Numbered from the stretch's first letter, positions 3,344 to 46,692 are shown. The stretch is 64,000 nt of DNA from Acutalibacteraceae bacterium (GCA_045634455.1 JAZRAI010000005.1:1292-65291), one strand, 5' to 3'. Numbers and translations: made by a program. The notes: generated by a model not told the origin, from the letters alone.

Positions 3344-6300
3344 TCACATATCTAAATAGTCATCGTTGCCAACAACTGCATTGTGAAGAAGTGCAAAGTC
3401 ATAAGCAGTTACATATCCATCCTTATCAAGGTCAAATACGGTTTCGTAAACGCCTTCTGCTGCGTCTGCAGAATTATACCATTTAGCAAAATTCATGGTA
3501 TCAGCAGAATCAATAACACCGTTACCATCAGCATCACCAAGTGTTACAACGTTAATACCTGCTTCTGTGCCAAAATCAACTATTAATTCATTGATATAAG
3601 CATCATCGTCGTTACGAGCAGCAACACCGGGAACTACAGTGAAGTCTGCAACGCCAGTAAAGTCTTGATCAACCTTGAAAGTGAGAGTTGCAAAAAGATA
3701 TTCGCCTTTTTCGAATTTTTTATCAACATAGTTGTATCCCATGTTTTGTGCGAGTGCAACAACATATGAGCTGTTTGCTGCATCAATATATGTGTTAGCA
3801 GTTACATCAAATACCTTACCTTCAACATTTACCAAAGTAAGATTCTGATTGAAGCCGATAGCAAAGTTAAGACCATAAAGTCTTGCAATATCACTGTTAA
3901 CATTCATATAAACATTAAGTGTAATATAACCGGAATTTACAGCCACATCACTACCATTGATACCAATTGCTTCATAAGTAAAGGTTATCTCTTCATTTAA
4001 TGCAGCAATTTCATTCTGTGCAACGAGTACTTCATCACAAACGGAGCAATGCTTACCTTCGGTAAGACCTGTAGTGTCGTAAGTAGGAGCAACAGCTTCG
4101 TCGATAACTTCGGTGTGGCCAAGTGCAGCCAACTCATTATAAGTAGTATGATCACATCTGGAGCAATCTTCATAAGCATCCCAACCAATTTCGGTACAGG
4201 TAGGAGCCTTAGCATCATGCTGTGTTAAATCGTGACCAAGAGCAGCTAATTCGTTGTAGGTGGTATAGTCACATCTTGAGCAGTCTTCATAAGCGTCCCA
4301 ACCAATTTCAGTACATGTGGGAGCCTGTGCGTCATGCTGTGTTAAATCATGACCGAGTGCTGCCAACTCGTTATAATTTTCGATGTGATCACATCTAGAA
4401 CAATCTGTATATGCGTCCCAACCAATCTCGGTGCATGTAGGTGCTTTGGCTTCTACATCAAGCATATCGTGGTCAAGAGCGGCTAATTCGTTGTAAGTAG
4501 TATAATCACATCTTGAGCAATCCTCGTATGCGTCCCAACCGATTTCGGTACAGGTAGGAGCCTTAGCGTCATGCTGTGTTAAATCGTGACCGAGTGCATC
4601 AACAAAGTTATCTTTGAAGACTTCATCACAAATGAGGCACTTCTTAACAGTGTAGCCTTCTTCGGTACATTTTGACTCTACAATACCTAATGTCAAGCAG
4701 TCGTAGTGACCTAATGCATCAACAACGGTATCAACATAAACATCACCGCAAGTTGAGCAGGTGTGAGTTGTGTAACCTTCTTCGGTACAAGTAGGATCGG
4801 TTACTACTGCATCATAAGAATGACCGAGAGCAGCTAACTCATTGTAAGTGGTATAGTCACATCTTGAGCAGGTAACATAAGCATCCCAACCGATTTCAGT
4901 ACAAGTTGCAGCTTTAGCTTCGTGAGCAACTTCATCATGACCTAAAGCATCTACAAAAGCATCCTCATATGTATCATTACAACGCGAACAAGTGTGAGTA
5001 GTGAATCCATCATTTAAACAAGTAGCTTCAGTAACTACATCTATATAATTATGATTATCAGGATCAATCGGAGTTGTCTTTTGTGCTGCTAAAACAATGT
5101 GGCAATCGCCGCATTCGATTTGGAAGGTAAGACCTGTTTCGGTACAGGTTGCCTTAACTTCGTCTTTAGTAATTACGCCTCTATGAGAAAGAGGATTAGG
5201 ATCAACATAGCTGTCAACGTATGAATCGTCGCAACGTGAACAATCGTGGGTAGTGTAACCTTGTGCAGAACAAGTAGGAGCTGTTACAGTAGGAACGTAG
5301 TCGTGTCCAAGAGCATCTACTACCTGCTGAGCCTCAATAATAGTATCACATACAGAGCAATGCTTACCTTCTGTAAGACCGGTTTCGGTACAAGTGGGAG
5401 CAACAGCGCTATCAGTTGTCTCGGTGTGACCAAGAGGATCAACTACAACATTTTCACGGCTGAGTTCTGCATCACATACATCACAGTAAATAACGGAATC
5501 ATAAGAACCAGGGTTTACGCAATCAGCGGCAACAATGTTTTCCTTAACAGCCTCTCCGTGAATGTGTTGAAGAGGTTCTCCAACAGCCTCATCGAAAGTG
5601 AAGGAACATACCTTACAAGTATATCTTACAGTTTCGGCGTCTTCACAAGTAGCGCCGATTACCTGCTTGTCATAATCGTGATGTCCAACACACGCAATCG
5701 TTTCTCTCTTGGTTTCGTGACATACAGTACACTCGTAATCGATGTAGCCGTCTACAACACAAGTAGCATCCTGTCTGCCAGTCTCTTGGTAGTCGTGGCC
5801 TGTAGCAGTAATTGTGTGTGAAGCACGAACAAATTCCTCTCCACATACAGCGCAGTAGATAACGGTGTCATATGAGCCATTGTTTTCACAATCTGCCTCA
5901 ACACGGTTTTCTTCAACCTCGCTGCTTGCGGTATGACCTAATGCATCTACATATGTATCTACATAAGTGTCAGCACAATCGGGGCAAGTATGAGTGGTGT
6001 AACCCTGTTCAGTACAAGTAGGATCGGTTACTACTGCATCGTGGGAATGTCCTGTAGCAGGAATTTCCACATATTCGTTTAAATCACATGTGTTACAGGT
6101 TCTGTAAGCATCCCAACCAATTTCAGTACAGGTAGGAGCCTTAGCATCATGATTTACATAATCATGTGCGCCTGTAGGCACAGCGGTAAGTTCAGCATAT
6201 GTTCCGTGGCATTCGTCACATTCATATACTTTGTATCCAAAGTTTGCGCATGTAGGAGCAACTTCGCCTGTTACAGTTCCTGTACGTGTTGCAGGATCAC

Positions 6301-6406
6301 ATTCACATTTCGTTGCTTCTAATGCAGATGCAGGTATTATAAGCTGTGTTAAGAGCATTGATAATACTAAAAGCATCGCAAAAATTTTAGAAAAATGTCT
6401 CTTCAT
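3344..6406 (-). CDS. large secreted protein: 19 CxxC repeat units, cohesin-like module, C-terminal dockerin-like module
   Basis: Signal peptide MKRHFSKIFAMLLVLSMLLTQLIIPASA. Repeat units such as PTCTEIGWDAYEDCSRCDYTTYNELAALGH. Cohesin-like TLTFKVDQDFTGVADFTVVPG region. Dockerin-like LGDADGNGVIDSADT..FDLDKDGYVTAYDF. AAGGAGAAAA RBS. Confidence 0.85.
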   Translation of the reverse strand: MKRHFSKIFAMLLVLSMLLTQLIIPASALEATKCECDPATRTGTVTGEVAPTCANFGYKVYECDECHGTYAELTAVPTGAHDYVNHDAKAPTCTEIGWDAYRTCNTCDLNEYVEIPATGHSHDAVVTDPTCTEQGYTTHTCPDCADTYVDTYVDALGHTASSEVEENRVEADCENNGSYDTVIYCAVCGEEFVRASHTITATGHDYQETGRQDATCVVDGYIDYECTVCHETKRETIACVGHHDYDKQVIGATCEDAETVRYTCKVCSFTFDEAVGEPLQHIHGEAVKENIVAADCVNPGSYDSVIYCDVCDAELSRENVVVDPLGHTETTDSAVAPTCTETGLTEGKHCSVCDTIIEAQQVVDALGHDYVPTVTAPTCSAQGYTTHDCSRCDDSYVDSYVDPNPLSHRGVITKDEVKATCTETGLTFQIECGDCHIVLAAQKTTPIDPDNHNYIDVVTEATCLNDGFTTHTCSRCNDTYEDAFVDALGHDEVAHEAKAATCTEIGWDAYVTCSRCDYTTYNELAALGHSYDAVVTDPTCTEEGYTTHTCSTCGDVYVDTVVDALGHYDCLTLGIVESKCTEEGYTVKKCLICDEVFKDNFVDALGHDLTQHDAKAPTCTEIGWDAYEDCSRCDYTTYNELAALDHDMLDVEAKAPTCTEIGWDAYTDCSRCDHIENYNELAALGHDLTQHDAQAPTCTEIGWDAYEDCSRCDYTTYNELAALGHDLTQHDAKAPTCTEIGWDAYEDCSRCDHTTYNELAALGHTEVIDEAVAPTYDTTGLTEGKHCSVCDEVLVAQNEIAALNEEITFTYEAIGINGSDVAVNSGYITLNVYMNVNSDIARLYGLNFAIGFNQNLTLVNVEGKVFDVTANTYIDAANSSYVVALAQNMGYNYVDKKFEKGEYLFATLTFKVDQDFTGVADFTVVPGVAARNDDDAYINELIVDFGTEAGINVVTLGDADGNGVIDSADTMNFAKWYNSADAAEGVYETVFDLDKDGYVTAYDFALLHNAVVGNDDYLDM
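4115..4591 (-). repeat. four in-frame near-identical tandem repeats (117, 117, 120, 117 bp) inside the 1020-aa gene
   Basis: Unit boundaries taken at the Gly/Asp-His codons: gtggcc 4115, gtgacc 4232, atgacc 4349, gtggtc 4469, gtgacc 4586. Encoded unit is HDLTQHDAKAPTCTEIGWDAYEDCSRCDYTTYNELAALG. Confidence 0.9.
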
Positions 6407-6549
6407 AATTTTTTCTCCTTATTAGTTTTTGTTTTTACATTTGATACAAGTTCGAGGATGTCCGCGTGGTAACACAATAAAAAAGCACAAAATTCAACAA
6501 CTCCTGATTTCCCGTTAATATAGGGCTATTTTTTGCGACAAAATGACAA

Positions 6550-6575
6550 TTATCAAATGGTGTACCTTTTGATAA
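6550..6575. promoter_or_regulatory. hix-like recombination site 1: TTATCAAATGGT-GT-ACCTTTTGATAA
   Basis: 12-bp imperfect inverted half-sites (1 mismatch) around the 2-bp core GT. Outer bases TTATCAAA / TTTGATAA match Hin-family half-sites. Confidence 0.6.
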
Positions 6576-6659
6576 TGGCCGTTTTTAACAGGTAAGGAAT
6601 TGCTTTTCAGTTATCATTAAATAAATATCTTCAAAAATTCGATTTTTTCTTAAAAGTAC

Positions 6660-6688
6660 TTGCATTTTCTTTTCATTTATGATAAAAT
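6660..6688 (+). promoter_or_regulatory. sigma-A-type promoter TTGCAT-N17-TAAAAT inside the putative invertible segment
   Basis: -35 at 6660-6665, 17-nt spacer, -10 at 6683-6688. It points toward the invertase 3' end in this assembly. Confidence 0.5.
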
Positions 6689-6698
6689 ACCATAGAAT

Positions 6699-6736
6699 AA
6701 AATGACTCTCAAAAGGTACACCTTTTGAGAGTCATT

Positions 6737-6738
<2 letters not shown>
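6699..6738 (-). terminator. hairpin terminator of the invertase gene (overlaps hix-like site 2)
   Basis: 18-bp perfect stem aaaatgactctcaaaagg / ccttttgagagtcatttt with loop taca. T-runs on both sides. It abuts the stop codon at 6737-6739. Confidence 0.7.
6706..6731. promoter_or_regulatory. hix-like recombination site 2: CTCTCAAAAGGT-AC-ACCTTTTGAGAG
   Basis: Perfect 12-bp inverted half-sites around the 2-bp core AC, the reverse complement of the site 1 core. 21/24 identity between site 1 and the reverse complement of site 2. Confidence 0.6.
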
Positions 6739-7444
<706 letters not shown>

Positions 7445-7558
7445 TTAAACAAAGCAAATCGTCATATATTGTGGAAAAAAAGAAAATATTGTGATATAAT
7501 GTAAAAAATAAGAATTCGAATGCTGTATTAAAAAACTTGTGTAAAAGGAATGTTAAAC

Positions 7559-9406
7559 ATGCTTAATTATCCTATAAATGTTACTATTGATACAAATGTA
7601 TTGTACGCTACAAACTATGATTTCAGCGAAAACAGCCCTCTTTCGCTTCTTGTAAAATATGTTCAAAAAGGAAAAATCAAGGTGATCTTAAGTGATATTG
7701 TTATAAGGGAAGCAAAGGCACATATATCAAAGCAAGTGAGTGATGTATGCGGAACTGCACGCAGGTTAAGAAAAGAAGTTTTGGAAAAATCCACAAAATC
7801 GCTTGTAGATTATATTGGAATGGGTAAATTATTAGAATTAGTTAATGACAAGAACAACCTTGTATTAAAGGGTTGTGAAATGTTTGATAATTTTATAATT
7901 CAAACGGGAGCGGAAATTTTAAAAACTGATCTAATAGATTTAGATAATATAATAGATGATTATTTTGAAATAAACCCTCCTTTTCAAAATGGCGAAAAAA
8001 AGAGAAAAGAATTTCCAGACGCATTTATAGCTTGCCAAATTAGAAAACGCTTTGGTGAAACTGAAGATGTCATTATCATAAGTAATGATAATGGCTTTAA
8101 GGCAGCGTGTGGAAATAATTCAAATCATATCTTTTTGAGTTCATTGGGCCAACTCTACAATACGATAAATAAGGAAGAGAAGGCATATGATGATACGATA
8201 AATTTAATTAAGGAATTACAATTCCGTATTCGAACAGAAATATTTGAATTCATAAAAACAAATGAAAGTATTGACGTAAGAGGTCTTTCTTATGATAAGG
8301 ATGGTATCGTAAGCGGATATGACTATGACGAATTTTATTTACAAGACATCTCAAACGGCACATTTGTAGTTCATTCTGTAGATGAAATATCTGAAAAAAC
8401 ATCTATAATAACTCTTTCGTGCAAGGCCAAAATGTCTGTTGATTGTTACTATGAAGATTATGAAAATGCTCCTTGGGATTCTGAAGCCAAAGAGTATGTT
8501 TTTGTCGAAAGTATAAAAATGAGAGAGGAACACGATGCAAGATTTGCTTGCCAAATTCAACTTAATCGCGAAACAAAAGATTTTAAAATTTCACCCTTTA
8601 AAGTGATTTTAGGTGGAGATTCCCGCAAAGAAGTTTATGAAATCAAAGATGAAGAAACTGAGAATTGTGAACGTGATATTTGCAATATGGATAGAGAAAC
8701 GTTAGGTTTTAATGCTCTTGGTAGTTATGAGTCATATTTACAAGAAGCATTGCCAGAATCTGATTTCAGCAAGAGAATTATCGAACAATTCGAAATAATC
8801 AATAGCTTTCGTAATCAATACGAAGAGATGAGTATAGATTATTACGAATTGTTTGAAAAAATCAATAAAGATGATAATCCTAAAGAAATATGTGGTGCAC
8901 TTTATAAAAAATTAAAAGAGTGTAATGGTTTTCCAACAATTATTAATGAAGAACATATTAGCGATGATGAATTAACAAAAATAAAAAAGTGGTTTGAAAC
9001 TGCCGGTGAAACGACTTGTGAAATCTCTGAAGAAGGACATTTGCCAGACTATATAAGTTACGGCGACACAATTCTCATAAAAGGTATTGATGATGAATTG
9101 ACGTTATCAATTCAAGATATTAGCAATATAGATCCGAGTGCTGGCGAACAGGAGAGCATAGATGTTTTATTATCTAAAGCTCAAGAAACAATAGCTACAG
9201 GGTCTATTACGTTGACAGTAGGTTATTTAGATTTTGATGAAGACGGAGGTGCAGCGAACGGTATTGAAGATAATATAGAATACGAATGCCATGAAATAAT
9301 CGAAAAAATTGATGGTTTCATCTTAAAACAAAAAGAAAAGGTAGAAGAGTACTTGAAAGTAAGTGAAATTTTAAAAGAATTCTTAGATACAGACATTATG
9401 AACTAA
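7559..9406 (+). CDS. PIN-like nuclease-domain protein with a ~400-aa acidic C-terminal region of unknown function
   Basis: N-terminus INVTIDTNVLYA, IVIREAK, FPDAFIACQI and IIISNDNGF fit the acidic-residue pattern of the PIN-like (DUF4935/PIN_12-type) fold. Start may be 7550 or 7559; the AAAGGAA spacing favours 7559. Confidence 0.6.
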   Translation: MLNYPINVTIDTNVLYATNYDFSENSPLSLLVKYVQKGKIKVILSDIVIREAKAHISKQVSDVCGTARRLRKEVLEKSTKSLVDYIGMGKLLELVNDKNNLVLKGCEMFDNFIIQTGAEILKTDLIDLDNIIDDYFEINPPFQNGEKKRKEFPDAFIACQIRKRFGETEDVIIISNDNGFKAACGNNSNHIFLSSLGQLYNTINKEEKAYDDTINLIKELQFRIRTEIFEFIKTNESIDVRGLSYDKDGIVSGYDYDEFYLQDISNGTFVVHSVDEISEKTSIITLSCKAKMSVDCYYEDYENAPWDSEAKEYVFVESIKMREEHDARFACQIQLNRETKDFKISPFKVILGGDSRKEVYEIKDEETENCERDICNMDRETLGFNALGSYESYLQEALPESDFSKRIIEQFEIINSFRNQYEEMSIDYYELFEKINKDDNPKEICGALYKKLKECNGFPTIINEEHISDDELTKIKKWFETAGETTCEISEEGHLPDYISYGDTILIKGIDDELTLSIQDISNIDPSAGEQESIDVLLSKAQETIATGSITLTVGYLDFDEDGGAANGIEDNIEYECHEIIEKIDGFILKQKEKVEEYLKVSEILKEFLDTDIMN

Positions 9407-9408
9407 AC

Positions 9409-9449
9409 AACAAGAAAATCCTTGCCTTTAAGGCAAGGATTTTCTTGTT
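9409..9449 (+). terminator. strong hairpin terminator after the PIN-like gene
   Basis: 19-bp perfect stem aacaagaaaatccttgcct / aggcaaggattttcttgtt with a 3-nt loop. Confidence 0.75.
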
Positions 9450-9507
9450 TAAAAAACTAATACTATGGATTAGCAAAATAAATATTTACAGGTGTATATT
9501 ATTGCAG

Positions 9508-9535
9508 TTGCAAATATTTATTTTTGTGTTATAAT
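9508..9535 (+). promoter_or_regulatory. promoter of the four-gene operon: TTGCAA-N16-TGtTATAAT (extended -10)
   Basis: -35 at 9508-9513, TG at 9527-9528, -10 at 9530-9535. Confidence 0.6.
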
Positions 9536-9555
9536 ATACAAATGGAGGGGTGTTT

Positions 9556-9810
9556 ATGGAGAATATTGATTTTGGCAATATACGTATTTCCCTTAATAGT
9601 GTAATAAAGCAGAAGAAAATAAGTAAAAATCTTTTAGCCGAGAAAGCAAATCTACAGCGTACGCAATTAAACGCATATTGTAATAATAAAATTAAAAGAC
9701 CGGATTTTGAAGTGTTATCAAGAATTTGTTATGCATTAGAATGTGACATATCTGATATTTTAAAATACACTAAACCAAACAAAGGAGAAGAATTAAATGG
9801 CAACAATTGA
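9556..9810 (+). CDS. XRE-family helix-turn-helix transcriptional regulator (84 aa)
   Basis: ISKNLLAEKANLQRTQLNAYCNNK is a typical HTH_3-type core. GGAGGGG RBS 5 nt before the ATG at 9556; the ORF-track start at 9550 is a GTG. Confidence 0.75.
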   Translation: MENIDFGNIRISLNSVIKQKKISKNLLAEKANLQRTQLNAYCNNKIKRPDFEVLSRICYALECDISDILKYTKPNKGEELNGNN

Positions 9811-10519
9811 AGTATACAATAATTATTCTTCCCTAGGCATTGTTTCTAGACCAATTACATATGGCGAAGAATTTGAAATGGTTCAGCAGTTTATTGATTT
9901 TAAAAAGAATTCTTTTAAGGAACAAACCAACAAACAATTAGCTATATTTATAGAAACAAAAATTAATGACGCTTATCCTGATGTAATATTTGCGGAATAC
10001 GATCCCTGCAAATATGAAAAATGGAATGCTTCTCGTAAAAACCTATCAACTCCTGATTTGAAGTTGTTGCATTATCTGTATGTAAATAGAGATGTCACAT
10101 CTAGAAAAATAATTAATGACTTGTCTATTCAATACAAAACATTATTACAATCGTTGGAAGCGTTACTTGACGCAGGACTTATTAGCAGATCAAATGAGTG
10201 TTGGAACATCCTTGATCGTGAAAACTTATTTGCCGTGAACAAAATAGAAGCTGTTGAGGCAAAAATAAGCAAATGGGATGCAGTTATGCAACAAGCAATA
10301 CTTAATAAGTCATTTGCTTCTGAAAGTTTTGTCTTGTCAAAGTGCAAGCGAGAGCCTAATGATGATATTGTTAAAAGAATCAGTTCTTTCGGCATTGGTA
10401 TATATTTGTTTGACGATTACCATTTTTCTCGTGTCGCAAGAGCAAAGCGTAATCGATTTCCTTCTAATTACAATTCGGTGTATTTAAATGAATGTATTGG
10501 AAAAATTTTAAACGCTTAG
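9797..10519 (+). CDS. hypothetical protein with winged-helix-like segment and PD-(D/E)xK-like motif pattern
   Basis: wHTH-like LKLLHYLYVNRDVTSRKIINDLSIQYKTLLQSLEALLDAGLISR. Nuclease-like pattern YGEEFEMV / YPDVIFAEYD / IEAVEAKISKW / QQAILN. AAAGGAGAA RBS. 14-nt overlap with the HTH gene. Confidence 0.45.
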   Translation: MATIEVYNNYSSLGIVSRPITYGEEFEMVQQFIDFKKNSFKEQTNKQLAIFIETKINDAYPDVIFAEYDPCKYEKWNASRKNLSTPDLKLLHYLYVNRDVTSRKIINDLSIQYKTLLQSLEALLDAGLISRSNECWNILDRENLFAVNKIEAVEAKISKWDAVMQQAILNKSFASESFVLSKCKREPNDDIVKRISSFGIGIYLFDDYHFSRVARAKRNRFPSNYNSVYLNECIGKILNA

Positions 10520-10529
10520 GAGGTTTAAA

Positions 10530-11366
10530 ATGATAAACGAATTATTGAAAAAGTATCCTTCGTTAAAAGTATTAAAAAAGTTCCCCGAATCAGGTCAGAA
10601 ACATGTTTTTCTTGTTAGTATTGAAGGATTTGGCATTTTAATGCTTAAAATAATTAAGAAGATGGATGAACGCATTCGGCGTGAAATTGATATTGTAAAT
10701 AACAATGATATTCCTGGTGTCCCAAAAATCAGAGAGTTCTCTTCTTTTTCATTTAATGGAGAGGAATGTTTTTACTTGTTGGAGGATTACATAGAAGGTA
10801 AAACTCTAACAGAGGTAATAAAAAGTGGATCTCTCGACTTGCCCAAGGCTATATCTTTATTTGAATATCTTCTTAATGCAGTTGTAAAACTTGAAGAACT
10901 AAAAATTGTTCATCGTGATATAAAACCTGATAATATTATTTGTGCAGATGATGGTTCTTATCATTTGATAGATTTTGGTATTGCCCGAAATTTAAATCTT
11001 TCATCGTTAACCTTAACTGTTGCTGCAGTTGGCCCACATACACCTGGATACGGAGCACCTGAATTGTTTCAATATAGCAAATTTAAAATTGATAGTCGTG
11101 CAGATTTGTTCTCTATAGGTGTGGTAATGTATGAAGCAATTATCGGCAAACATCCTTTTATTACGGGACATGAGGTAGATTTGAATGAAATATGGTATCA
11201 AACCGCTACAGTTACACCAAAGGATTGTTTGATACCGGGTGACAATGAGAAACAATTAATGGGGTTAATTCAAACTTTAATGCAAAAACCTGTAAGCAAA
11301 CGTCCCCCTAATGCACAAAGAGCTCTTCAATGGTTTAGGTTGGTTTTATCTACTATATCGATGTAA
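10530..11366 (+). CDS. stand-alone Hanks-type Ser/Thr protein kinase domain (278 aa)
   Basis: HRDIKPDNI catalytic loop, IDFGIARNL (DFG), GYGAPE (APE). No TM segment or accessory domain. GGAGG RBS. 10-nt gap to the upstream gene. Confidence 0.85.
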   Translation: MINELLKKYPSLKVLKKFPESGQKHVFLVSIEGFGILMLKIIKKMDERIRREIDIVNNNDIPGVPKIREFSSFSFNGEECFYLLEDYIEGKTLTEVIKSGSLDLPKAISLFEYLLNAVVKLEELKIVHRDIKPDNIICADDGSYHLIDFGIARNLNLSSLTLTVAAVGPHTPGYGAPELFQYSKFKIDSRADLFSIGVVMYEAIIGKHPFITGHEVDLNEIWYQTATVTPKDCLIPGDNEKQLMGLIQTLMQKPVSKRPPNAQRALQWFRLVLSTISM

Positions 11367-11382
11367 ACGGAGGTGTATATAG

Positions 11383-12594
11383 ATGGAGTTATTTCTTCAA
11401 TTTGGATATGGTATGAAAAATCTCACAATTGATCTCGCTAAAAAATGGAATGGTGCATCAGTTATTTTAAGTCCTCGTGACATGGAGCCAACACAATTGC
11501 ACAAATGGAGTAAGGAGTTTGAAAAAGCGGGAGTCGATTGTTATTTTGATCCTCAATGTTATTGCCCTAAAAGCGAATTGAAGCGATTGACTAAATACTC
11601 ATATTGGGACTGTAACTTAAATACAAATTTACAATCAAATAACACTTATGTAGAGCAAAAAATTGAAAACATCAAGCAATATAATGATATAGCAATGACG
11701 AAAGCATATATTCTTCCATGCATACTAAACAAATATGAAGATACGTGGGAGGATCGATTTGTTTTGCAGCAAAAGAGATTTATTGATGCTGCCCACAAAA
11801 CAATGAAAGATAAACCGATATATGCAACTCTTGCTTTACCTAGTGATTTTTTGATACAAAATGAAAAGATAATTGAGCCTTTTCTTAATGAAATATGTGC
11901 TTTAGATGTAGATGGTTTTTATATTGTGGCTGAAGCATTAGATAAAAAATACTTAATAGATAGTCCCATGTGGTTGTCTAATGTATTTCATTTGTGCGCA
12001 ACCCTGAAAATGGCTGGCAAAAAAGTGATATATGGATATGGTAACCATCAGATGTTGCCATTGTCATTAATTAAGGTTGATGCTATGGCATCCGGCACAT
12101 GGTTAAATGTAAGGAGTTTCACCAATAGATTTATTGATACCGATGAACAAAAGCGAAAAAGTACATGGGTGTATTATCCCGAATCTTTGTCAGAGTATAA
12201 ATTATCATTCCTTGATTGGGCATATAACACTGGATATTTGTCAACAATGAAATCTGGCGATAAATCATTCATGGATGAACACTATAACAAGTTATTTCAA
12301 ACCTCTGTTGCACCTTCTACTACAAACTTTAATGAAACAGATGCATTTAAACACTATCTTTGCTGCTTGCGTCATCAAATTGAATTATTAGATAAAAACA
12401 CTTATAGTGAAGCTTTTGAGAGCTATAGCCTTATTCTAACTACTGCAGAGCGAGAAATTGAGCGATTGGAAAAGGTAGCAATTTATGCCCAAGCTAGAAG
12501 TTTTAAGAATTTTATTGATGTAAATCGTGCGGCTATAACTCAATTGGATCGTAGTCATGGATTTGCAATTAATATGTCTTGGAATGATTTGTAA
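11383..12594 (+). CDS. hypothetical protein, 403 aa, no recognisable motif (alternating beta/alpha-looking N-terminal ~300 aa, helical tail)
   Basis: Long ORF with GGAGGTG RBS and a 16-nt gap after the kinase gene. A terminator lies about 105 nt downstream. Confidence 0.7.
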   Translation: MELFLQFGYGMKNLTIDLAKKWNGASVILSPRDMEPTQLHKWSKEFEKAGVDCYFDPQCYCPKSELKRLTKYSYWDCNLNTNLQSNNTYVEQKIENIKQYNDIAMTKAYILPCILNKYEDTWEDRFVLQQKRFIDAAHKTMKDKPIYATLALPSDFLIQNEKIIEPFLNEICALDVDGFYIVAEALDKKYLIDSPMWLSNVFHLCATLKMAGKKVIYGYGNHQMLPLSLIKVDAMASGTWLNVRSFTNRFIDTDEQKRKSTWVYYPESLSEYKLSFLDWAYNTGYLSTMKSGDKSFMDEHYNKLFQTSVAPSTTNFNETDAFKHYLCCLRHQIELLDKNTYSEAFESYSLILTTAEREIERLEKVAIYAQARSFKNFIDVNRAAITQLDRSHGFAINMSWNDL

Positions 12595-12700
12595 GTTAAA
12601 AAGGAATAGATATTTTGATTCTAAAATTGATCCTATGATATTTGAATTAAATAAACATTCCTATTAATTCAACAAAAACTTAAATAACAAATAGCATATA

Positions 12701-12737
12701 AAAGACCGGTGCACACTTCAAGGTGCTACCGGTCTTT
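12701..12737. terminator. bidirectional hairpin terminator between convergent genes
   Basis: aaagaccggtgcac / gtgc(t)accggtcttt stem with T-runs on both strands. Confidence 0.7.
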
Positions 12738-12752
12738 ATATTTCATGTATGT

Positions 12753-13816: not shown

Positions 13817-13903
13817 TGGTGCCGATGACCGGACTTGAACCGGTACGATATTGCTACCGAGGGATTTTAAGTCCCTTGTGTCTGCCTATTCCACCACATC
13901 GGC
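13817..13903 (-). tRNA. tRNA-Leu (anticodon UAA), encoded CCA end
   Basis: The reverse complement folds as GCCGATG/CATCGGC acceptor stem, AGGGA-CTTAAAA-TCCCT anticodon arm, long variable arm, GGTTCAAGTCCGG T-arm, then ACCA. Confidence 0.9.
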
Positions 13904-46451: not shown

Positions 46452-46692
46452 TAAAAAATAGCCGATTGCTCGGCTATCAAAAAAATGGAAACGGTAACCA
46501 CAATTACCGCCTAAAATCCCTTTTTCGATAGCACTCCGCAAATGCGACAGTAAAGCAGATATTATTCTGAATTACCAAGTCGGATACACGCCTGTATCCG
46601 CTTTCGGCGACTGCTCCTTTCACTTTAGCATCTTTCTGCCGAAATTAACAGCTAAAAGCTACTGATAGCACATCGCACCTCTATCTTACTTA
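46452..46692 (-). promoter_or_regulatory. lysine riboswitch (L-box) with terminator, leader of dapA-lysA
   Basis: The minus strand reads AGATAGAGGTGCGATG..GAAAGGAGCAGTCGCCGAAAG..ACTGTCGC, matching conserved L-box elements. It ends in TAGCCGAGCAATCGGCTA plus TTTTTT (46453-46476). Confidence 0.8.

Follow-up and report, generated by a model that had tools for sequence, protein, structure and literature searches.

A widespread three-gene cassette joining a bare Hanks-type kinase to a nuclease-like and a TIM-barrel protein: a candidate mobile conflict system

What is the role of a compact operon that contains the gene of a bare Ser/Thr protein kinase and lies in a 64,000-nt stretch of DNA from an Acutalibacteraceae bacterium? 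The whole stretch is referred to below as the window, and its coordinates are counted from the first letter. In an earlier, sequence-only reading the operon had been put forward as an undescribed conflict system of four genes, encoding a regulator of the XRE type, a nuclease-like protein, the kinase and a protein without recognizable motif. In the present analysis the conserved unit turned out to be smaller. Three of the genes, here called B, K and D, constitute an obligatorily linked operon of three predicted enzymes with a shared pattern of divergence, and this cassette has been transferred horizontally and is located among mobile-element and defence-island genes. The evidence leans moderately towards B-K-D being a mobile, self-contained three-gene conflict or defence system of the anti-phage or anti-mobile-element type. 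The genes of the operon are the following:

9556-9810, + strand: regulator of the XRE/Cro-C1 helix-turn-helix (HTH) type, 84 aa; ATG start, with an in-frame GTG also at 9550; HTH_26 match with E = 8e-18
9797-10519, + strand: B, 240 aa, predicted PD-(D/E)xK-like protein with an inserted winged helix (AlphaFold2 topology and invariant residues)
10530-11366, + strand: K, 278 aa, Hanks-type Ser/Thr kinase consisting of the catalytic domain only; Pkinase match with E = 1e-31
11383-12594, + strand: D, 403 aa, orphan protein predicted by AlphaFold2 to be a (beta/alpha)8 TIM barrel with a C-terminal helical bundle

A scan for open reading frames (ORFs) delimited the compact operon within positions 9480-12603, and found all four ORFs on the + strand exactly where they had been placed before. 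The 14-nt overlap between the XRE gene and B and the subsequent gaps of 10 and 16 nt were also exact, and the strong ribosome-binding sites that had been claimed are there, a GGAGG-type site preceding every one of the four start codons.

How widely the genes occur and which of them belong together was determined from homologous loci. A protein search returned 624 homologues of D, nearly all of them 395-405 aa long and none informatively named, and HMMER run over 1.84 billion representatives found 815 D clusters at E ≤ 1e-3; no fused domain was seen on D among the best 150 of these 815 clusters. A genome scan with one genome per species gave 71 loci, which were reduced to 58 by dereplication at 90% identity. 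The majority of the 71 loci are from Bacillota, and the remainder from Bacteroidota, Campylobacterota, Verrucomicrobiota, Planctomycetota, Acidobacteriota, Desulfobacterota, Zixibacteria, Caldiserica and others, so that loci with the triad span more than ten bacterial phyla in addition to Bacillus plasmids and a haloarchaeal plasmid. B, K and D were found in the same order and on one strand in about 49 of the 58 dereplicated loci; the exceptions are contigs cut within the cassette, the decayed loci L064 and L074, an inversion of B in L072, and a lone D in L033 and L073. In none of the 53 loci where it could be measured did the gap between K and D exceed 20 nt, and in 19 of them the two genes overlap by 1 or 4 nt; between B and K the distance varies from -23 to +27 nt. 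The three proteins have correlated pairwise distances (r = 0.90-0.92, Mantel p = 0.001), B diverging fastest (mean p-distance 0.61, as compared to 0.57 for D and 0.545 for K). All-against-all clustering of 570 neighbour proteins revealed neither a fourth conserved gene nor a phosphatase partner, and ten immediate downstream genes all differ (AbiH, PRTase-CE, DUF3991, a methyltransferase, a metallophosphoesterase and others). The syntenic conservation expected by the sequence-only reading was thus observed, and its description of a syntenic, transferred cassette holds; the four-gene composition does not, since the core is B-K-D and the XRE gene is adjacent to it in only three of the 58 loci.

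A few loci deviate from this pattern in informative ways. Decayed cassettes were noticed in L064 (7704-7988), L074 (~7700-8945) and L077 (6995-8182); among them there is a kinase cut to ~90 aa, which in L064 adjoins a 396-aa gene on the reverse strand, and, on the Bacillus bombysepticus megaplasmid, a D split into two ORFs by a frameshift. In L073 (4743-7344) a D homologue with 29% identity occurs without B or K, 17 nt after the gene of a 462-aa AAA_14 ATPase, which may be an alternative partner of the TIM-barrel protein. The slower divergence of D relative to B and this AAA_14-paired homologue would fit a scheme of "conserved effector, exchangeable sensor".

The clearest sign of mobility came from a comparison of the window with L005, a locus in a metagenome-assembled genome of a gut Ruminococcaceae bacterium encoding proteins ~87% identical to those of the window. 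DNA homology between the two extends over exactly 9480-12603, that is from the operator O1 (see below) to just past the stop codon of D, and the flanks are unrelated; in L005 the cassette is flanked by two tyrosine integrases. In eight Flavobacteriaceae genera (L053-L061; carriers include Flagellimonas, Maribacter, Euzebyella, Croceitalea, Cytophaga sp. and Allomuricauda) the triad is borne by an element of at least 14 kb that is 93-99.9% identical between carriers, where it stands beside the gene of a 1671-aa Eco57I-methylase/helicase protein. This indicates recent transfer between genera, the element probably being an integrative and conjugative element (ICE). In the metagenomic locus L083 the triad is embedded among type IV secretion system genes (TrbC, VirB3, VirB4 ... 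TrbL, VirB8), and in Neobacillus it adjoins genes of a D5_N primase and an integrase. Plasmid-borne copies were found in Bacillus mycoides, beside a recombinase and an integrase, and in B. bombysepticus. On plasmid CP095393 of the haloarchaeon Natribaculum breve B-K-D occupies 5426-8893, directly after the gene of a 1339-aa protein that, from its motifs, we read as a type IIG-like methylase/restriction enzyme. On the same plasmid a 229-aa calcineurin-like metallophosphoesterase, which could be a lineage-specific phosphatase partner, is encoded 21 nt after the triad.

In the clustering of neighbour proteins no families recurred except large serine recombinases (8/58 loci), tyrosine integrases (6/58), small HTH proteins (4) and HsdR (3). 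The neighbours were otherwise heterogeneous: Pfam and PADLOC models, run on the 258 products of the three nearest genes to either side, repeatedly gave type I restriction-modification genes, Hma/DUF1156/DUF499/PLD-helicase genes, Mrr, AbiH, a retron reverse transcriptase with ATPase-Toprim, AAA_15/21 and DNA methylases; PRTase-CE was also among the defence-type neighbours. On single contigs the triad was accompanied by SNF2-NOV_C with DUF1156-DUF499-HEPN, by Fic, NERD and Mrr, or by an MNT-type toxin-antitoxin pair, and in all nine annotated contig contexts mobile-element, defence or toxin-antitoxin genes lay at most 8 kb away. By raw count, defence and recombinase families are the commonest neighbours, and the enrichment is a qualitative one. 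A location of the homologues in housekeeping operons would have weakened the original proposal, but they do not sit in such operons; recombinase and defence genes dominate their surroundings.

Some further observations concern individual neighbours. In Enterococcus faecalis (L080-L082, 6418-9179) the triad is present in many assemblies (94 collection blocks in the index), where it occupies a single chromosomal site with a small HTH-rich island on one side and rseP-proS-polC on the other. In L088 a gene with nucleotide-modification-associated domain 4 (Nmad4) is located 21 nt downstream of D (9224-9622), and the genes upstream encode AAA-ATPase/PDDEXK_9 and AAA_14/DUF4143 proteins. Among the downstream neighbours of the 58 loci PP2C was found in 2 of 128, and matches to the PADLOC models mad2 and mad3 were found in three.

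Of the three proteins K is the one with a clear family assignment. The Pkinase model matched it with 110.8 bits (cut-off 31.7) over essentially all 278 aa. In an alignment of 50 kinases, 49 from triad loci and that of the window, K40 in beta3, E52 in alphaC, the HRDIKPxN, DFG and GYxAPE motifs, D192 in alphaF and R258 in alphaH-I were all at least 90% conserved. Since these motifs are retained to this degree, the enzyme is expected to be active and under purifying selection. Judged by its motifs K belongs to the Hanks type and appears catalytically intact, and its earlier description as a bare catalytic domain of 278 aa proved correct.

Protein B matched no family above threshold in Pfam, NCBIfam, PADLOC, PHROGs, PDB sequences or PDB profiles. 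An AlphaFold2 model built on 34 homologues (pLDDT 90.7) has the predicted topology alpha-beta-beta-[winged helix]-beta-alpha-beta, with the winged helix at about residues 78-140, between the PD and the ExK motifs. This insert gave matches to MarR, TrmB, HTH_24 and HTH_27 in up to 12 of 35 members. Residues R18, G23, E25, P61-D62, R80, E154-x-K156, Q166, N170 and E232 are invariant across phyla, and E53 is invariant or nearly so, as are E25, P61-D62 and E154-A-K156; we read these residues as the classical (E)...PD...ExK signature. The model, the invariant residues and the winged-helix matches agree, at the level of prediction, with the earlier suggestion of a winged helix inserted between PD-(D/E)xK-like motifs. 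Foldseek matches of B were weak. The top one was VC1899 (PDB 1xmx; TM 0.24), a Card1/Can2-like protein, and there were also ArsR and MarR structures. The model of B has an alpha-beta-beta-beta-alpha-beta core with E...PD...ExK, which recalls PD-(D/E)xK nucleases that carry a fused sensor or DNA-binding domain. In B, however, the winged helix interrupts the core between strands 2 and 3 and is not a terminal fusion, and there is no CARF domain. The placement of a winged helix inside a predicted nuclease core makes the architecture of B unusual. B is predicted to be a DNA-binding nuclease or sensor.

Protein D had been described as lacking any recognizable motif. This is true as far as sequence families are concerned: no match was obtained in Pfam, NCBIfam, PADLOC, PHROGs, PDB sequences or PDB profiles, nor with permissive settings and 39 members. 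It is not the full picture, since the predicted structure of D is that of a TIM-barrel enzyme whose pocket is strictly conserved. In the AlphaFold2 model (pLDDT 87.2, pTM 0.88) residues 1 to ~300 form a canonical (beta/alpha)8 barrel, which is followed by the helical bundle. Invariant in 39 of 39 homologues are Q6, D56, N101, T149, Y180, Y219, Q223, G238, Y264, P266, E271, H324, Y325 and Q332; S30-P31, P57-Q58, Y60, P62, N221, N242, R244, F246, W262, S270 and D278 are at least 92% conserved, with P57, Q58 and R244 reaching at least 95%. The active sites of TIM barrels are at the C-terminal ends of the barrel strands, and many of the conserved residues of D are predicted to be at or just after these ends, or in the loop and strands past strand 8. 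The pocket is rich in Asp, Glu and His as well as in Tyr, Trp, Gln and Asn and has few metal- or phosphate-binding patterns, so in the model it resembles the site of a glycosidase or transglycosylase more than that of a metallo-nuclease. D stands for ~800 clusters at 50% identity, with this invariant, active-site-like pocket and no assignment to a known family.

Structural searches with D against PDB and BFVD returned weak, generic TIM-barrel matches only (E ~1e-4). The best E-values were obtained with glycosidases of GH53 and GH5 and with sugar epimerases, and the largest overlaps (TM 0.43-0.50) were to the tRNA-guanine transglycosylases (TGTs) 6rkq and 2ash, again with E ~1e-4; in BFVD there was a match to a viral "queuine tRNA-ribosyltransferase". 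D resembles TGT/DpdA enzymes in the (beta/alpha)8 barrel, in this range of TM values and in the polar and aromatic pocket, with an Asp, at the mouth of the barrel. It differs from them in lacking detectable sequence homology and the DpdB and DpdC partners, in apparently lacking the zinc site and in having the C-terminal helical bundle, and the structural E-values are no better than those with unrelated TIM barrels. By sequence D is not a member of the TGT/DpdA group, as the TGT family (PF01702) was not detected in any of the 39 homologues at E up to 1 and none of the PADLOC Dpd models matched. The invariant columns show no Cys/His zinc-site pattern, and neither the window nor any of the retrieved loci contains a TGT gene. 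Among other candidates, endonuclease IV/xylose-isomerase-like and amidohydrolase readings found no sequence support, a metal-dependent reading does not fit the invariant residues, and a clan GH-A reading was dropped because the Glu-Glu pair at the ends of strands 4 and 7 is missing from model and alignment.

The regulatory region and the end of the operon contain the following elements:

9477-9490, no strand assigned: operator O1, 14-bp palindrome-like sequence AATAAATATTTACA, putative XRE binding site (inverted repeat I20); L005, L006 and L012 have the motif in the same place ahead of their XRE genes
9508-9535, + strand: sigma-70-type promoter with extended -10, TTGCAA-16-TGtTATAAT (10 of 12 matches in the consensus scan, TG present)
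9509-9522, no strand assigned: operator O2, second copy of the palindrome, TGCAAATATTTATT, overlapping the -35 hexamer and the spacer (inverted-repeat scan)
12700-12738, no strand assigned: stable hairpin, probable bidirectional terminator (-23.1 kcal/mol, z = -6.5, none of 200 shuffles as good)

The XRE protein scored 64.9 bits with HTH_26 (cut-off 22) and 30.7 bits with HTH_3 (cut-off 23), which assigns it to the Cro/C1 HTH group and agrees with the claim of an 84-aa XRE-type regulator. The same 84-aa gene was called on L076. Next to the triad it was found only in the nearest relatives of the window (L005, L006 and L012), and in one more case it was located elsewhere in the locus. Being absent from the side of the triad in most loci, it was rejected as a core component and is a lineage-specific accessory. 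An extended -10 promoter is present as claimed, and its position is conserved in relatives whose XRE proteins are only 62-87% identical; the scan score by itself is not significant, as 41 sites were found in this AT-rich region and 38.7 were expected from shuffled sequence. Both palindrome copies (family consensus about TGCAAATATTTGCA; O1-O2 spacing 32 bp from centre to centre) and the -10 element are kept in L005, L006 and L012. Because O2 overlaps the promoter, autorepression by XRE through O1 and O2 would be the simplest reading. The hairpin at the other end is real and stable, ~100 nt past the stop codon of D. It does not, as had been thought, close the operon as such: lying between the convergent genes of D and of a transglutaminase-like membrane protein, and outside the block homologous to L005, it is best understood as a shared or bidirectional terminator of the locus and not as part of the mobile cassette.

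Kinase-containing defence-island systems are a known kind; the B-K-D cassette and its two unannotated families are undescribed. Stk2 of Staphylococcus epidermidis and PD-T4-6 of Escherichia coli are similar to it in having a Hanks-type kinase with intact motifs as the central component. In these systems phosphorylation triggered by the phage leads to growth arrest, and K might plausibly act alike. They are, however, stand-alone and usually longer kinases, whereas K is a bare domain, is linked to two enzymes and never stands alone. With the PADLOC PD-T4-6 hidden Markov model (HMM) K scored 131 bits (E = 1e-38), little above the 111 bits of the generic Pfam Pkinase model, and PADLOC would probably label K "PD-T4-6". 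The same label has been given to a 1.87-kb gene in 27 of 27 Streptococcus thermophilus genomes (PMC11514479); its product, an N-terminal kinase with repeats that we read as PASTA, looks like a housekeeping kinase. As the model set also tags this housekeeping-type kinase, the label is uninformative, and naming K "PD-T4-6" from the HMM score alone was rejected because the match is non-specific.

TerY-P, MADS and Pgl/BREX type 2 share with the cassette a eukaryote-like kinase within a multi-gene defence-island operon, and K is partly HMM-similar to MAD6 of MADS and to PglW of Pgl/BREX type 2. None of the partners of these systems (TerY/vWA, PP2C, PglX/Y/Z, MAD1-5/7/8) is encoded in the cassette. 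Seven proteins were scanned, the four operon products together with the neighbouring PIN_12 protein, serine recombinase and transglutaminase, and no PP2C, FHA, vWA, PglZ, PglX or HipA partner was found among them, in agreement with the sequence-only reading. TerY-P was rejected as neither vWA nor PP2C occurs in the operon products or the three neighbours, MADS because antiphage_MADS6 scored 99 bits (cut-off 460) and B and D match no mad model, and Pgl/BREX type 2 because PglW scored 55 bits (cut-off 990). With HipBA and HipBST the operon has in common an XRE gene that overlaps the first gene of a Ser/Thr kinase operon, and palindromic operators over the promoter. It differs from them in that K is of the Hanks type, XRE is dispensable across the family and two more enzymes are obligatory; the matches of K include no HipA-type Pfam family, Pkinase being found instead. 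The claim that the operon does not fit Stk2, TerY-P, Pgl/BREX type 2 or HipBA/HipBST is thus supported, and a check for already named systems found nothing in PADLOC-DB 2.0.0 or NCBIfam 20 (June 2026) that matches B or D. No description of the triad was found in the literature, including the DefensePredictor paper, the MADS part of this search being swamped by papers on plant MADS-box genes.

In the favoured conflict-system reading, for which we infer not only a defence function but also a sensor-kinase-effector order and the substrate of D, the parts might work together as follows. In the lineage of the window, where an XRE autorepressor is placed ahead of B-K-D, XRE would bind the two palindromic operators overlapping the promoter and keep expression low. 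B would bind DNA and sense or cleave the nucleic acid of the invader. K would serve as a switch, coupling B to D by phosphorylation; alternatively it would phosphorylate host or phage proteins in the manner of Stk2-type kinases. The chemistry of D as effector, on a nucleotide, a sugar or nucleic acid, would then block phage replication or kill the infected cell. The abortive infection suggested by the sequence-only reading may be the mode of action. D is the better putative effector compared with the nuclease-like B, because the pocket of this predicted enzyme is strictly conserved and the protein evolves more slowly. Going one step further, we consider it possible, if somewhat short of probable, that B-K-D is an undescribed immune system of bacteria and one archaeal plasmid in which the kinase relays a signal from a DNA-sensing B to a new TIM-barrel family with new effector chemistry, e.g. 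the N-glycosidic attack of nucleotides or of bases in DNA or RNA. In bacterial immunity it is poorly understood by what means Ser/Thr kinases detect an infection and which responses they set off. The cassette would be a minimal, three-part and apparently self-sufficient case of kinase immunity, with two enzymes as dedicated partners of the kinase. As its hosts include E. faecalis, Bacillus cereus-group plasmids, Paenibacillus and gut Oscillospiraceae, it should be readily testable, and in these organisms it could affect phage therapy or gene transfer. Even if its role is not defence, it is still a widely transferred kinase module.

Several points weigh against a role in defence. B and D match no model of PADLOC-DB 2.0.0 or NCBIfam 20, so defence is assigned through guilt by association, and the neighbour enrichment is qualitative, from raw counts. 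Many neighbours are ordinary: the E. faecalis cassette abuts rseP-proS-polC, and the D of L073 stands beside the arginine-biosynthesis genes argJ-argB-argD. The nuclease assignment of B comes from predicted structure and motif, since its 35 members match no PD-(D/E)xK Pfam family, and the fold of D points to no specific function. No D homologue was found in 50,697 phage records, a result that is neutral as regards defence, though it takes away one supporting argument. Many loci are from metagenome-assembled genomes, and their taxonomic labels are perhaps wrong.

Four other explanations were weighed against this one. The cassette might be restriction-modification-like, with D a TGT/DpdA-like self-marking enzyme of base exchange or glycosyl transfer acting on DNA or tRNA, B cutting DNA that is unmarked or differently marked, and K regulating the two; PglW is thought to regulate such a balance in Pgl/BREX type 2. 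The best whole-chain overlaps of D with TGTs and the viral queuine tRNA-ribosyltransferase match, an invariant Asp with an aromatic/Gln/Asn pocket suited to base or sugar binding, the Nmad4 gene next to D in one locus and the complete PD...ExK motif kept in B are all in keeping with this. We nevertheless consider it improbable: the 39 D homologues have no match to the Pfam TGT family, D matches no PADLOC Dpd model, the invariant columns show no Cys/His zinc-site pattern, the cassette contains neither a DpdB-like ATPase nor a preQ0-synthesis gene, and glycoside hydrolases and aldolases equal TGT by E-value. Still less probable is an accessory operon of an ordinary regulatory or metabolic kind that plays no part in genetic conflict, such as one in which the winged-helix protein and the kinase control a carbohydrate-active TIM barrel. 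The leading Foldseek E-values of D to glycosidases and sugar epimerases, the MarR/TrmB-like winged helix within B and the location of some loci beside housekeeping genes could be explained in this way, whereas clustering of neighbours revealed no recurring transporter, sugar kinase or metabolic partner, the Glu-Glu pair of clan GH-A is missing from D, and B has a conserved nuclease motif, which goes beyond a mere regulator fold. Moreover, the distribution is patchy across phyla with near-identical copies in different genera, and recombinases and defence genes dominate the neighbourhood.

The other two explanations start from the mobility of the cassette. Toxin-antitoxin pairs do not typically consist of three enzyme-like proteins of 240-400 aa, all with catalytic residues conserved, most loci lack the XRE gene and the kinase is of the Hanks and not of the HipA type; for these reasons we think it rather unlikely that B-K-D is an addiction module that stabilizes its carrier elements, with the kinase or D as a toxin held in check by a partner and XRE, and with no dedicated anti-phage role. 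What speaks for such a module is that the cassette is often cargo of integrative, conjugative or plasmid elements, that the XRE gene overlaps the first gene in a HipB-like arrangement, that toxin-antitoxin genes are found nearby (Fic, an MNT-type pair, SocA_Panacea) and that L064, L074 and L077 carry decayed copies; toxin-antitoxin and abortive-infection functions are, however, not mutually exclusive. The cassette could also serve the element itself and not protect the host from phages; it might, for instance, act in counter-defence or entry exclusion, or regulate transfer or excision by phosphorylation. The triad embedded between type IV secretion genes in L083, the Flavobacteriaceae triad beside a giant Eco57I-methylase/helicase protein of a kind typical of conjugative elements and the D5_N primase and integrase neighbours in Neobacillus point in that direction, but many loci have no transfer genes within 8 kb and lie instead amid restriction-modification, Abi and retron genes. 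ICE cargo regions are a well-known location of defence systems, and since such systems commonly reside there, an ICE-cargo context fits both readings and does not discriminate between them. We regard a service to the element as very unlikely.

The genes next to the operon in the window are:

6737-7366, - strand: small serine recombinase of the resolvase/invertase type, 209 aa (domain scan)
7550-9406, + strand: PIN_12 gene (PIN_12 match with E = 9e-27)
13817-13903, - strand: tRNA-Leu

The G+C content is 0.30-0.34 over 7-13 kb, as compared to 0.36-0.44 in the flanks, and the GC skew switches sign within this low-G+C region. The G+C profile, the domain scan and the tRNA-Leu gene thus corroborate the AT-rich island with a PIN-like gene, a serine recombinase and a tRNA gene that had been described before. 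A search for att-like direct repeats of tRNA-Leu flanking the island gave none that were convincing, including none that would pair the serine recombinase with tRNA-Leu. The PIN_12 protein (618 aa) has the PIN_12 domain at its N-terminus and ~430 unannotated aa at its C-terminus, has no PADLOC or NCBIfam match and was never found alongside the triad in other loci. Its gene has a promoter-like site of its own (7472-7500), and a perfect 20-bp hairpin is located at 9409-9449; within the same island it is perhaps an independent toxin or defence gene that acts on its own. The serine recombinase gene sits at the edge of the low-G+C island, where a perfect 22-bp hairpin (6696-6741) adjoins it. On the - strand, 3344-6406 encodes a Cys-rich repeat protein of 1020 aa with tandem repeats of 117 and 237 nt at 4115-4598. 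It has a predicted signal peptide and, at the C-terminus, a motif resembling dockerin, and suggests a host among gut Clostridia of the cellulosome type. Elsewhere in the window, a lysine riboswitch (Rfam RF00168, 86.9 bits) was found at 46521-46691 on the - strand.

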